Sequence record: OP856590.1
Reading direction: 5' to 3' (one strand)
From: Escherichia phage Ec_MI-02
Length of the DNA: 64,000 bases
Shown in pieces: positions 4,420-6,993 of this stretch (its first letter is position 1; the number at the start of each line of letters is the position of its first letter). The notes below the pieces were generated by a model that did not search any database, was not told the DNA's origin, and saw nothing but the letters and a program-made list of their open reading frames with translations. The translations under genes and the position numbers were made by a program.

Positions 4420-4444
4420 AAAAACCCCAACCTTTTGGTCGGGG
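4420..4444 (-). terminator. rho-independent terminator
   Basis: Minus RNA ccccgacc-aaaa-ggttgggg followed by UUUUU; directly 3' of the IP-like gene (stop at 4454). Confidence 0.65.
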
Positions 4445-4453
4445 CTAAGAATG

Positions 4454-4927
4454 TTATTTGATTTGTTTAGCAGACCAAATGCGGTCTTTAATAATTTTTT
4501 GGATGTCTTCAACATACTCAAGAGAGTGAACATGCGGATTATCTTTGAAACTATAAGCACGGGCTAGCTTTTGGCCTTCGGTTTTGATTACTAAAAGCTC
4601 TTTAAGGATAGCTTCATATTTAGAGATAATTCCTTTAACGATATTTTTTTCTTGTGCAGCTTTAGGATCTGCTTTAGGAGCAGGTTTACCCGAAGCCTTT
4701 GCAAAAGCAGCGCCAGTAGCAACTAAACTTTTCCAGGCCATACTAACTGCATTTCCCGTAAATCCTTCTGCTTTCATGTCGCGAGCAAATTGGAATCGTG
4801 ATTCGTCAGAAGCATCTTTATAGGAATATTTACCCGCTGCAATGGCTGCTTTTGCGACAGCTTGAATTTCGGTGCTAGATGCTTCATTTAACACCGCTTC
4901 ATTTAAAAATTGAGCATATGATTTCAT
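4454..4927 (-). CDS. internal head protein-like (capsid-targeting sequence at N-terminus)
   Basis: 157 aa; N-terminus MKSYAQFLNEAVLNE resembles the T4 IP targeting sequence (MKTYQEF...E) with LNE|A prohead-protease-type cleavage motifs; late promoter upstream, terminator downstream. Confidence 0.7.
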   Translation of the reverse strand: MKSYAQFLNEAVLNEASSTEIQAVAKAAIAAGKYSYKDASDESRFQFARDMKAEGFTGNAVSMAWKSLVATGAAFAKASGKPAPKADPKAAQEKNIVKGIISKYEAILKELLVIKTEGQKLARAYSFKDNPHVHSLEYVEDIQKIIKDRIWSAKQIK

Positions 4928-4967: not shown

Positions 4968-4975
4968 TATTTATA
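4968..4975 (-). promoter_or_regulatory. T4 late promoter TATAAATA
   Basis: Plus tatttata = TATAAATA on minus, about 41 nt upstream of the ATG at 4927. Confidence 0.55.
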
Positions 4976-4977
4976 CT

Positions 4978-5003
4978 AAAAAGCCCCAACCTTTCGGTCG
5001 GGG
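4978..5003 (-). terminator. rho-independent terminator (GAAA tetraloop) ending the tRNA/stable-RNA transcription unit
   Basis: Minus RNA ccccgacc-gaaa-ggttgggg-c-UUUUU; near-duplicate of the terminator at 4420-4444. Confidence 0.65.
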
Positions 5004-5057
5004 CTAAGCCTTGCGGTAACCTTGTCGGGGTTCCACCTGCTAAGGCAAGTGTTTGTA

Positions 5058-5214
5058 CGAAACGCCGGGATTCGAACCCGGTTATTAAGCAGTTGACGCT
5101 ACTCAATATTTTTAAAAGGCCATATCTCGACCATATCCGAACGTTCCGTCAAAAACGCTACTCGGCTTACGGCAAAGATATTTCCTCGAATCGATAATTC
5201 TGCGCGCCGTTTCA
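5058..5214 (-). ncRNA. candidate tRNA-like stable RNA (compare T4 stable RNA species 1/2)
   Basis: tRNA-like T-arm ccggg-ttcgaat-cccgg followed by a 7-nt strand (cgtttcg) that can pair with tgaaacg about 150 nt upstream; too long for a tRNA; lies between tRNA-Arg and the terminator. Confidence 0.25.
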
Positions 5215-5321
5215 GCTGTGATGTAAGGGGACATTAACAGATCGTAAAGATTTGATAATGTCAGTCCTTACTCAGGGAACATCAGTCCGACGACTTACCG
5301 GTAGCGACCCGGTTTCTTGTT

Positions 5322-5397
5322 TGGTCGAGGCAGTAGGGATCGAACCTACGACCTAGGACTTAGAAGGTCCTTGCTCTTCCTTCTGAGCTATGCCTCG
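5322..5397 (-). tRNA. tRNA-Arg (anticodon TCT)
   Basis: Cloverleaf read by eye on minus strand: acceptor cgaggca/tgcctcg, anticodon loop CTTCTAA, T-arm gtagg-ttcgatc-cctac, encoded CCA. Confidence 0.88.
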
Positions 5398-5401
5398 TAT
5401 T

Positions 5402-5476
5402 TGGCGGACGTGATAGGATTCGAACCTATAACCAATCGCTTAACAGGCGATCGCTCTGCCATTGAGCTACACATCC
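5402..5476 (-). tRNA. tRNA-Asn (anticodon GTT)
   Basis: Acceptor ggatgtg/cacgtcc, anticodon stem-loop atcgc-CTGTTAA-gcgat, T-loop ttcgaat, encoded CCA. Confidence 0.85.
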
Positions 5477-5480
5477 AAAT

Positions 5481-5567
5481 TGGTGGGGAGTGATGGAGTC
5501 GAACCACCCGAGTCGCAATGACAATGGATTTACAGTCCACACCGCTACCTCTACGGGATAACTCCCC
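5481..5567 (-). tRNA. tRNA-Tyr (anticodon GTA), long variable arm
   Basis: Acceptor ggggagt/actcccc, anticodon loop CTGTAAA, long variable arm, T-loop ttcgact, encoded CCA. Confidence 0.82.
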
Positions 5568-5579
5568 TAATTCTTAATT

Positions 5580-5655
5580 TGGTGGCCCTGGGTGGAATTG
5601 AACCACCATCTGGCGATTATGAGTCGCTTGCTTGAACCTTCCAGCTACAGGGCCA
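5580..5655 (-). tRNA. tRNA with CAT anticodon, most likely tRNA-Ile2 (lysidine type), alternatively Met
   Basis: Acceptor ggccctg/cagggcc, anticodon stem-loop agcga-CTCATAA-tcgcc resembling E. coli tRNA-Ile2 (ggcgaCTCATAAtcgct); encoded CCA. Confidence 0.8.
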
Positions 5656-5662
5656 AATTTTC

Positions 5663-6148
5663 TTATTTTATGTAATATTTATTTAAAAACTTTCTAGCTT
5701 GAGTATGGCTAACATTTATAGCGTTTGCATAATTTTTAATAAAACCTCGTTCATCCATATTAAAATTTTCTAATATTTTTAATCGTCTAGTTATCTCATC
5801 TTGACTTAAGGTACTTGCATTATTTTTAGAAATTTTTTCTAAGGACTGTGCCGAGTGTTTTCGACCATTAAAATTAAAATTTTTAGATTTTGGAGGAAAT
5901 CTAGCATTTAATCTCGCATCTTTTGTATTTTGATTATTAGTTGCGCAATATATGTTATTTAATGAATATGGTCCTTTATCGCCGAAACGGCACATGCAGT
6001 ATTCATGACCCTTTCTTCCGCGCTTATCATAATTTCCCGTTGATTTCCACCAATGCAGCCATTCATCAAAAGTTAAATTCCATTCAATGTTTCTACGTAT
6101 AGCAGAATTCCGCTGAGAAATATATTTTGCATAATCTTCTTTCATCAC
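5663..6148 (-). CDS. putative HNH-like (Cys/His-containing) homing-endonuclease-like protein with C-terminal HTH-like tail
   Basis: 161-aa ORF inserted between tRNA-Ser and tRNA-Ile; basic; core GHEYCMCRFGDKGPYSLNNIYCATNNQNTK resembles a degenerate HNH/zinc motif; positional analogy to T4 segB in the tRNA cluster, but no GIY-YIG motif. Confidence 0.5.
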   Translation of the reverse strand: MMKEDYAKYISQRNSAIRRNIEWNLTFDEWLHWWKSTGNYDKRGRKGHEYCMCRFGDKGPYSLNNIYCATNNQNTKDARLNARFPPKSKNFNFNGRKHSAQSLEKISKNNASTLSQDEITRRLKILENFNMDERGFIKNYANAINVSHTQARKFLNKYYIK

Positions 6149-6192
6149 AAATTTCTCTACTTATTCAATACACTGAGCTAAATCAGCAAAAC

Positions 6193-6282
6193 TGGCGGAG
6201 GCGATAGGATTTGAACCTATGAGTCGCCGGAGCGACTGCCGGTTTTCAAGACCGGTGCATTAAACCACTCTGCCACGCCTCC
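6193..6282 (-). tRNA. tRNA-Ser (anticodon TGA), long variable arm
   Basis: Acceptor ggaggcg/cgcctcc, anticodon stem-loop ccggt-CTTGAAA-accgg, variable arm, T-loop ttcaaat, encoded CCA. Confidence 0.9.
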
Positions 6283-6284
6283 AG

Positions 6285-6358
6285 TCTCCGCGGCAGGATT
6301 TGAACCTGCGACATTCTGCTCCCAAAGCAGACGCTCTACCAAACTGAGCTACACGGAG
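6285..6358 (-). tRNA. tRNA-Pro (anticodon TGG)
   Basis: Acceptor ctccgtg/cgcggag, anticodon stem-loop tctgc-TTTGGGA-gcaga, T-arm gcagg-ttcaaat-cctgc. Confidence 0.9.
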
Positions 6359-6368
6359 TAAATTAAAT

Positions 6369-6442
<74 letters not shown>

Positions 6443-6447
6443 AAATT

Positions 6448-6534
6448 TGGTGCGAGAAGTGGGACTCGAACCCACAAGGAAATCATTCCGCAGCATTTTA
6501 AGTGCTGTGCCTTTACCAATTTGACCATTCTCGC
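6448..6534 (-). tRNA. tRNA-Leu (anticodon TAA), long variable arm
   Basis: Acceptor gcgagaa/ttctcgc, anticodon stem-loop cagca-CTTAAAA-tgctg, encoded CCA. Confidence 0.9.
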
Positions 6535-6535
6535 G

Positions 6536-6608
6536 CTGGGAATAAAGGACTCGAACCTTTGCATCCTGGAATCAAAATCCAGTGCCTTACCAACTTGGCT
6601 AATTCCCA
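6536..6608 (-). tRNA. tRNA-Gln (anticodon TTG)
   Basis: Acceptor tgggaat/attccca, anticodon stem-loop ctgga-TTTTGAT-tccag, T-arm aaagg-ttcgagt-ccttt. Confidence 0.9.
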
Positions 6609-6705: not shown

Positions 6706-6993
6706 TTACCATTTATGATAATACATATTTACGATGCATTCAAGACCCAAAGGATTCTTGAAAATATCATATTCAAGAGGACCTTTTTCTGTTTCGATAA
6801 AGAAATCAAAATTTACTGTATTAAATTTACGGTCTTCCTTCACTAATTTAACTTGTGAAGATGAACGGTCAATGTAAACCTTTTCAACTTCAAAATATGT
6901 TAAAATACCATAATCATCAATCAAAGCTTTAGCCGCGTCTTGATCGTATTTATATCCATTTTCAATGGATGATACTTTAGCATAAAGAATCAT
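6706..6993 (-). CDS. hypothetical protein
   Basis: 95-aa ORF adjacent to the stop of the upstream gene. Confidence 0.55.
   Translation of the reverse strand: MILYAKVSSIENGYKYDQDAAKALIDDYGILTYFEVEKVYIDRSSSQVKLVKEDRKFNTVNFDFFIETEKGPLEYDIFKNPLGLECIVNMYYHKW

Follow-up and report, generated by a model that had tools for sequence, protein, structure and literature searches.

The stretch of about 320 nucleotides (nt; positions 5004–5321) that separates the last transfer RNA (tRNA) gene of Escherichia phage Ec_MI-02 from the terminator downstream of it raises a simple question: what does it encode? We analyzed 64,000 nt of the phage genome (record OP856590.1; hereafter, the window), whose numbering is used throughout. 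A previous reading of the letters by themselves (the sequence-only reading) saw no fitting open reading frame (ORF) and proposed that the stretch carries counterparts of the two small stable RNAs of phage T4, rnaC and rnaD, which have been known in T4 since the 1970s. The region almost certainly encodes the orthologues of T4 rnaD (species 2 RNA) and rnaC (species 1 RNA) in this phage, as judged from alignment and the order of the elements.

The window is part of a Tequatrovirus (T4-like) genome; it matches 769 Tequatrovirus-type records, with Shigella phage pSs-1 as the top match (99.3%). Nine tRNA genes cluster at 5322–6608 on the minus strand (ARAGORN), which is also the strand of the RNA elements described below. 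The last tRNA of the cluster, tRNA-Arg(UCU), occupies 5322–5397 (ARAGORN; Rfam tRNA, 68.1 bits), and rnaD follows its 3′ CCA after 1 nt; across the window and T4, this distance is 1–2 nt. The T4 reference record (NC_000866) annotates rnaD ('small, stable RNA; species 2 RNA'; T4s002) and rnaC ('species 1 RNA'; T4s001) as misc_RNAs at 71053–71171 and 70908–71046, respectively. Alignment to this record placed rnaD at 5201–5320 and rnaC at 5056–5194 of the window, and a three-way alignment showed the window, T4, and phage GiZh to be collinear throughout the region. The order tRNA-Arg, rnaD, rnaC, trailer, and terminator is common to the window and T4, with rnaC at the same position and on the same strand relative to the tRNA cluster. 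The GiZh record labels the same stretch as rnaC plus a terminator, the latter mapping to 4973–5004 of the window. Because the T4 features map here collinearly and with high identity in rnaC, we read the region as the rnaD-rnaC locus, and the kinship with T4's two RNAs proposed by the sequence-only reading held up. The identity with T4 varies along the locus: 137 of 139 positions in rnaC (98.6%; substitutions in the region of positions 5130 and 5090), 101 of 121 alignment columns in rnaD (83.5%), 92% over the approximately 50 nt of the trailer, and just 52.6% in tRNA-Arg.

The region is therefore composed of several elements: rnaD (5201–5320, approximately 120 nt), a 6-nt spacer (GAAUUA, 5195–5200) that fills the gap between the mapped 3′ end of rnaD and 5′ end of rnaC, rnaC itself (5054–5194 by covariance model R1, 5056–5194 by the T4-annotated ends), and the trailer. 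The locus is already known, and the re-identification of two T4 RNAs will not surprise a specialist. What the two RNAs look like, how far they extend beyond T4, and what they might do are considered in the following sections.

Structure and range of rnaC

We gathered homologues of rnaC by pattern scans of IMG/VR and metagenomes and by blastn of phage genomes and confirmed them with a covariance model, in which they scored 93–160 bits and tRNAs at most 23 bits. The rnaC of the window scores 157.1 bits with covariance model R1. The alignment (A6, 25 distinct sequences) has a consensus of 51 pairs, with 96.2% of the cells paired and 30 pairs showing changes in both partners. Column shuffling (500 rounds) never gave as good a result, and structures slid by 1–3 columns gave at most 12 such pairs. 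Furthermore, the minimum free energy (MFE) fold predicted from the window sequence alone (−50.2 kcal/mol, z = −3.63) is identical to the comparative structure. On these models, rnaC is a four-way junction with the topology of a tRNA cloverleaf and is predicted to be a tRNA mimic without an anticodon.

The tRNA-like end of the molecule is formed by two contiguous stems. The acceptor-like stem pairs the 5′ strand CGAUUCG (5187–5193) with the 3′ strand CGUUUCG (5058–5064), which is followed by a discriminator-like U (5057) and ACA (5054–5056). This stem is helix 1 of A6 (99% of the cells paired), and its pair 4–138 is A-U in 13 sequences and G-C in 12. For example, the T4-type stem CGAUUCG/CGUUUCG becomes CGGUUCG/CGUUCCG in Karamvirus (A-U to G-C). 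In Tegunavirus (CGGUCCG/CGGACUG), both U·U mismatches are replaced by U-A and C-G, so that all seven positions pair. Directly adjoining it is the T-arm CCGGG-UUCGAAU-CCCGG with its 5-base-pair (bp) stem (5065–5081; helix 7 of A6), in which pair 119–131 is G-C in 13 sequences, U-A in 10, and A-U in 1. The sequence GGTTCGAATCC with at most one mismatch occurs seven times in the 64-kb window (0.59 expected); six copies lie in tRNAs called by ARAGORN, and the seventh is the T-arm of rnaC. The sequence-only reading had singled out this T-arm and the acceptor strand next to it as tRNA-like, correctly so for rnaC. The tail after the acceptor stem is U-N-C-A in all homologues, with the U and the CA invariant and N being A in the T4 type, U in Tegunavirus, and C in Marfavirus, which thus encodes U-CCA. 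A U also precedes the acceptor stem in 24 of the 25 sequences. In the two Klebsiella Marfavirus homologues (L039:1201–1342 and L062:151–292), the U-CCA tail resembles the 3′ end of a tRNA.

The other two arms are not those of a tRNA. A long, irregular arm (5117–5186; helices 2–4 of A6, 17 of 25 pairs changed on both sides) takes the position of the D-arm, and a hairpin with a 10-bp stem (hairpin 2, 5083–5108; helix 6 of A6, 8 of 10 pairs compensated) takes that of the anticodon arm. The apical loop of the long arm (UUGACG, 5147–5152) is complementary to the loop of hairpin 2 (CGUCAA, 5093–5098). The two loops are complementary in all 25 aligned sequences and in 4 further ones, and they covary, reading UUGGCG/CGCCAA in Marfavirus and UUGAUG/CAUCAA in Tegunavirus. 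The resulting 6 bp are paired in 100% of the cells, with two pairs changed on both sides. The complementary loops look like the two strands of an intramolecular kissing loop tying together the two non-tRNA arms. We rejected a competing pairing between the rnaC 5′ strand and the T-loop of the same RNA (5069–5075 with 5186–5192), which is broken in Tegunavirus and is a by-product of the palindrome UUCGAA.

Homologues of rnaC are present in Tequatrovirus, some Dhakavirus, Karamvirus, Winklervirus, Tegunavirus, Gelderlandvirus, Kanagawavirus, Moonvirus, and the Klebsiella Marfavirus group. They cover at least eight Straboviridae genera in addition to Marfavirus. Within the tRNA arrays of Karamvirus, Gelderlandvirus, and Winklervirus, rnaC takes a middle position as if it were one more tRNA, typically between tRNA-Trp and tRNA-Gly. 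A metagenome scan with the rnaC pattern returned nine loci, all close to the T4 type, and added little diversity. Some phages carry rnaD without rnaC. Their rnaD is joined straight to the same trailer, which suggests that rnaC was cleanly inserted or deleted as a unit.

The rnaD core and its relatives

Folding of rnaD (MFE −36.1 kcal/mol, z = −2.77) and its comparison with relatives predict an irregular rod with an invariant core. The copies in the window and T4 are essentially identical in a 5′ block (approximately 50 nt) and a 3′ block (approximately 21 nt), and both blocks are invariant in all T4-type copies. The distal arm of T4 has diverged from that of the window, with compensatory changes and 1-nt indels, and the 3′ end reads GCGCGCA in the window versus GCGCACC in T4. 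We aligned 18 distinct cores (A7), with the distal arms swapped for a GAAA placeholder. In this alignment, 79.7% of the cells are paired, compared to at most 41.5% in slid controls. The comparative support for the core helices is moderate.

The first element of the predicted rod, hairpin 1 (5297–5313), has the stem ACCGG/CCGGU and the 7-nt loop GUCGCUA and is predicted in 15 of 15 T4-type sequences. Its stem changes sequence and stays paired in phage W70 (UCGGG/CCCGA), CR9 (GCGG/CCGC), KM16 (AUCAGAA/UUCUGAU), and locus L014 (UCCAUGA/UCAUGGA). Helix P2 pairs GUCGUCG (5288–5294) with CGGCG-C-GC (5202–5209). Its inner five pairs are invariant in A7, an A-to-G change in the 3′ strand of the window retains the pair (U-A to U·G), and pair 9–44 switches from G-C (15 sequences) to C-G (3 sequences). 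Helix P3 pairs GAUGUU (5278–5283) with AGCUGA (5212–5217) and has tandem G·A/A·G pairs at its base; pairs 16–39, 18–38, and 19–37 covary, and the Karamvirus and Moonvirus versions of the helix are fully Watson-Crick. Beyond P3 lies the variable distal arm (5223–5271). It exists in at least three unrelated versions among T4-type phages, while W70, CR9, and Karamvirus share a further one; the arm shows compensatory changes between the window, GiZh, and T4. Folding and comparison of relatives thus bore out the structured sequence that the sequence-only reading had suspected, with covariation-supported secondary structures for both RNAs.

The distal arm also holds the second copy of the direct repeat ggactga, which the sequence-only reading had remarked upon. 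The two copies are present on the plus strand (5261–5267 and 5282–5288), but their number is at chance level, because the 371 nt of the region contain seven direct-repeat families of at least 7 nt, GGACTGA being one of them, and because T4 has AAGGAATTG in place of the second copy (GGACUGA in the arm).

The rnaD core is not confined to T4-type phages. It is also found in Escherichia phage W70 (Vequintavirinae) and its relatives (downstream of tRNA-Met), Cronobacter phage CR9, Karamvirus, Moonvirus KM16, Marfavirus, and others. These rnaD-like copies usually fill the spacer from one tRNA to the next exactly. In KM16, for example, the copy extends from 573 to 683, and in CR9 it ends at 683 and tRNA-Asn starts at 684. 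We place rnaD in a broader family of structured RNAs that occupy spacers in the tRNA arrays of Straboviridae and Vequintavirinae. The rnaD-like RNAs of W70 (L044:790–900) and CR9 (L055:575–683) lie directly after a tRNA, and their cores are identical or nearly so to the T4 type. That an unrelated phage family carries such a core suggests horizontal transfer or strong selection. A 17-mer from the core retrieved nine additional loci from IMG/VR that lack the 3′ block, and we discarded them as chance matches. Scanning bacterial genomes with the rnaD core pattern gave no matches, and blastn against 5,426 E. coli genomes found no match; no host or prophage copy of either RNA was found.

We also noticed further conserved blocks in the tRNA arrays of Karamvirus and Marfavirus (L003:500–640, similar to L039:770–900, and L004:760–880, similar to L039:900–1040) that are neither tRNAs nor evidently coding and have no match in Rfam. 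One block (..GTTCCCACAG..CTGTGTTCT..) is similar to a version of the rnaD distal arm. These blocks may be additional structured RNAs carried by the arrays.

Probable biogenesis and possible functions

Downstream of rnaC is a conserved 3′ trailer (5006–5053, AACACUUGCCUUAGCAGGUGGAACCCCGACAAGGUUACCGCAAGGCUU) followed by an intrinsic terminator of the tRNA/rnaD/rnaC unit (4975–5005), which has a 10-bp stem, a GAAA loop, and a U-tract and is recognized by a terminator scan (5005–4982), the GiZh annotation, and the fold. On the minus strand between 5322 and 6608 we found no late-promoter consensus (TATAAATA) or sigma-70-like site; the closest late-promoter consensus on this strand is at 6947–6954, upstream of the tRNA cluster. 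The position of the terminator and the lack of a promoter-like site within the cluster suggest that the tRNAs, rnaD, and rnaC are co-transcribed. Early work on T4 species 1 and 2 reportedly described processing by RNase P and RNase III, as well as T and pseudouridine in species 1. RNAC has been detected by Northern blot in T4, for which stable species of about 140 nt (rnaC) and 120 nt (rnaD) are reported and where both RNAs are classed as late (PMC9697503), and both are said to be part of a tRNA precursor of approximately 1.75 kb that ends after species I (PMC2330249).

Both RNAs would then be excised from the tRNA transcript by the tRNA-maturation machinery of the host. RNase P should cut at the 5′ end of the rnaC minihelix given the stacking of the acceptor stem on the T-arm, the U ahead of the stem, and the U-NCA tail. 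The same cut would create the 3′ end of rnaD, and 3′ processing of tRNA-Arg would leave its 5′ end. Exonucleases may trim the 3′ end of rnaC back to the acceptor stem. The compact folds (the kissing-loop-tied four-way junction of rnaC and the irregular rod of rnaD) could stabilize the released RNAs. A biogenesis based on RNase P is probable on these structural models, and the identity of the two RNAs taken together with this outline of their biogenesis is very likely correct.

Other features of the neighborhood deserve mention. The trailer carries CCCCGAC-AAGGUU, a partial copy of the 5′ half of the terminator (CCCCGACCGAAAGGUU). We claim no structure for the trailer: in T4, the GCCUU/AAGGC stem of its MFE structure is disrupted, and another hairpin, CACUUGC/GCAGGUG, is invariant and so offers no covariation. 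Near-identical terminators (AGCCCCGACC-RAAA-GGUUGGGG) at 4423–4446 and 4982–5005 on the minus strand flank a gene for a protein of 157 amino acids (aa; 4454–4927), which belongs to PHROG 2280, of unknown function. A late-promoter consensus (TATAAATA) at 4968–4975 is located immediately past the upstream terminator. Within the tRNA cluster, an ORF of 161 aa (5663–6148, minus strand) stands where T4 has the homing endonuclease gene segB; it matches PHROG 16521, of unknown function, and has no match in Pfam.

As to function, we tentatively propose, on comparative grounds, that rnaC and rnaD act in trans as protein-binding RNAs. In this role, rnaC, which lacks an anticodon, would serve as a decoy for factors that recognize the acceptor/T-arm minihelix or would compete for them. 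For rnaD, the invariant internal-loop core would be the active part, and the effects of both RNAs would be host-specific rather than essential. We favor a trans-acting role because the core sequence is conserved, the rnaC body is kept wherever it lies in the arrays, and a mutation in the rnaD region was shared by independently adapted lines. The conservation of the core is one of sequence and not of structure alone, for rnaC across genera and for rnaD (26 + 21 nt) across two phage families. The mutation, a single convergent single-nucleotide polymorphism (SNP) in the rnaD region, was the only change common to three of three BW-1 lines adapted to semi-permissive E. coli (PMC12685909).

Several points weigh against the reading as a whole. 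On laboratory hosts, T4 remains viable when its entire tRNA region is deleted. The ends of rnaD and rnaC in the window are transferred from the T4 annotation, and the kissing loop rests on just two independent compensatory events. In addition, rnaC as annotated in T4 begins with the U that precedes the stem and terminates at U-A; the mature RNA would therefore not be a CCA-ended tRNA-like molecule, which weakens decoy ideas that need the CCA. The SNP of the BW-1 lines is apparently in the variable arm, and it could act at the level of DNA or processing. The function of both RNAs is also stated to be unknown in the literature (PMC9697503, PMC3014915).

The main competing explanation, to which we assign about one chance in a handful or slightly better, is that both RNAs work in cis only, as structured punctuation of the tRNA transcript. 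They could provide entry sites for RNases P, E, or III or a 3′ shield for the upstream tRNAs and be functionless once released, accumulating merely because they resist degradation. Consistent with this, both RNAs are always found within tRNA arrays or closing them, with ends that match tRNA processing sites, and no target or partner is known (PMC9697503, PMC3014915). Yet a purely structural role would tolerate drift, and the rnaD core and the loops and linker of rnaC are nearly invariant while neighboring tRNAs and stem sequences change. Furthermore, the elaborate body of rnaC and its kissing loop are kept in mid-array copies as well as in those at array ends, and the convergent SNP of BW-1, with its host-specific gain in virulence, suggests an effect beyond the processing of neighbors.

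A bolder version of the trans-acting proposal, and one that we regard as fairly improbable, is that rnaC and rnaD are the founders of two uncurated families of array-borne RNAs that act as host-specific factors of counter-defense or host takeover. If true, rnaC could, for example, be an anticodon-less tRNA decoy, locked by its kissing loop, that soaks up a host factor, immune nuclease, or transferase recognizing the acceptor/T-arm end of tRNAs, and rnaD could be a sponge whose invariant core captures protein. The rnaD-region SNP that raised the activity of BW-1 on strain ECOR34 would then be the first phenotype for such a role.

Regulation by base pairing is unlikely. In that scenario, phage or host mRNAs would pair with conserved single-stranded segments, for instance the linker of rnaC (UUUUAAAAAUA) or, in rnaD, its 5′ tail and internal loops. 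The A/U-rich linker is conserved, and one paper calls the RNAs 'small regulatory RNAs' (PMC9697503). However, the most conserved loops of rnaC are occupied by the internal kissing interaction, the 5′ tail of rnaD is not conserved in W70, KM16, and CR9, and no regulatory small RNA has been functionally characterized in T4 (PMC3014915).

Less likely still, the two RNAs could be decayed tRNA genes or neutral leftovers of rearrangements in the tRNA cluster, with no selected function. The tRNA clusters of these phages are mosaic, the acceptor and T-arm of rnaC are tRNA-like while an anticodon arm is missing, and ARAGORN miscalls part of one homologue as a tRNA-Met. Decay is difficult to reconcile with an rnaC that is 98.6% identical between the window and T4 next to a tRNA-Arg that is 52.6% identical. 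The 30 compensated pairs and the retention of rnaC in at least eight genera indicate purifying selection on a specific fold.

The sequence-only reading had envisioned a single large tRNA-like RNA, in which a 7-nt strand next to the T-arm (5058–5064) pairs with 5208–5214 to form an acceptor closing an insert of approximately 150 nt. The two 7-mers are indeed complementary, and a repeat scan extended the match to 9 nt with 8 of 9 paired (5059–5067 with 5205–5213). The conserved partner of 5058–5064 is, however, 5187–5193, as the compensatory changes reveal, and the stem encloses the 139-nt rnaC alone, without reaching into rnaD. The distant 7-mer corresponds to nt 108–114 of rnaD and lies inside its helices P3 and P2 (the 3′ strand of P2 overlaps it), which are conserved in phages without rnaC. 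Conversely, the local acceptor stem persists, compensatory changes included, in the rnaC homologues of Karamvirus, Tegunavirus, Gelderlandvirus, and Marfavirus, which have no rnaD beside them. In T4, the proposed helix would open with an A-G mismatch, and the annotation there lists two separate RNAs. We consider the single large RNA very improbable.

Finally, small proteins encoded by the stretch are the least credible of these explanations: ORFs of 34–50 aa overlap the region and many GenBank records carry coding sequence calls there ('hypothetical protein'), but none exceeds 50 aa, and no reading frame is conserved because homologues differ by 1- and 2-nt indels, their substitutions follow the pairing of stems and not codon positions, and the elements adjoin tRNAs directly in other genera, where these replace the flanks.

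These findings have practical value for annotation. Most related GenBank records leave the stretch bare or fill it with spurious 'hypothetical protein' or tRNA calls, and few carry RNA labels. The 95-nt 'tRNA-Met' that ARAGORN places inside an rnaC homologue (L004:1551–1645) is an example, and one record puts a tRNA-His over rnaC/rnaD. Records are thus misannotated or unannotated here, and neither RNA has an Rfam model. The models backed by covariation, the kissing loop, the CCA encoded in Marfavirus, and the rnaD-like RNAs of Vequintavirinae are apparently undescribed in the searchable literature, outside of which the original papers of the 1970s–80s lie. The tRNA-type minihelix of rnaC, its covarying kissing loop, and the invariant rnaD core of two phage families are experimental handles that make the old question of what species 1 and 2 do more directly testable, and the evolution experiment with BW-1 hints at a host-specific phenotype (PMC12685909).

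Comparison with known RNA classes

Searches of Rfam with the window and six related loci, at gathering and E ≤ 10 thresholds, returned only tRNAs and sub-threshold noise, so that the covariance-model search raised by the sequence-only reading matched neither RNA to a family; ARAGORN predicted no tRNA or transfer-messenger RNA (tmRNA) in 5004–5321. We therefore compared the structural models with known classes motif by motif. Helix P3 of rnaD (T4, W70, and CR9 types) resembles the box C/D kink-turn in having UGAUG opposite CUGA and tandem G·A/A·G pairs followed by G-C. The variable 3b·3n position is U·U, U-A, A-U, or A·G. The third position of the helix (5278–5283 with 5212–5217) covaries, being U-A in 7 sequences, A-U in 6, U·U in 2, and never A·A. 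In contrast to the kink-turn, two extra A residues and a 4-nt bulge separate P3 from the closing helix, leaving an irregular junction, and in Karamvirus and Moonvirus the motif is replaced by plain Watson-Crick pairs. We do not call P3 a kink-turn because of this non-canonical junction and the Watson-Crick replacement elsewhere. E. coli is not known to have an L7Ae-type protein.

Other resemblances of rnaD were set aside. The hammerhead ribozyme words CUGAUGU and GAAAC are present, but helix I is missing, U occupies the seventh core position, Rfam gives no match, and both words are absent from the KM16 and Karamvirus versions. Words resembling the 3′ end of 16S rRNA (AAGUCGU, AACAAG) and 5S rRNA were judged coincidental, the 5′ tail being unconserved in W70, KM16, and CR9.

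For rnaC, the bacterial YrlA/Y-RNA-like tRNA mimics are also stable non-coding RNAs that combine a tRNA-like module with a canonical T-arm. They differ from rnaC, whose own termini form the acceptor-like stem and which has no Ro-binding terminal helix. We rejected this class, for which Rfam gave no match even at E ≤ 10. We also rejected tmRNA: pair 3:70 of rnaC is A-U or G-C, only the T-arm matches tmRNA_permuted (10.1 bits), and ARAGORN makes no call. In Rfam, rnaC comes closest to tRNA-Sec, with 16.6 bits where the threshold is 47.

Compared with the tRNA class (RF00005), rnaC has the 7-bp acceptor, the contiguous 5-bp T-stem, and a T-loop of the UUCRANY type, and helices 1 and 7 covary. It does not have the complete cloverleaf with a D-arm and a 7-nt anticodon loop; both of its non-T loops are 6 nt long and mutually paired. 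Similar combinations occur in tRNA-like substrates of RNase P, such as the tRNA-like domain of tmRNA, mascRNA, and the t-elements of plant mitochondria. Unlike these, rnaC encodes CCA in Marfavirus only and has neither a G3·U70 pair nor a tag ORF, and two long arms with kissing loops stand in place of the anticodon arm and D-arm. What rnaC has in common with them is the acceptor/T-stem with its UUCGAAU loop, the four-way junction, the U before the stem, and the U-NCA tail.

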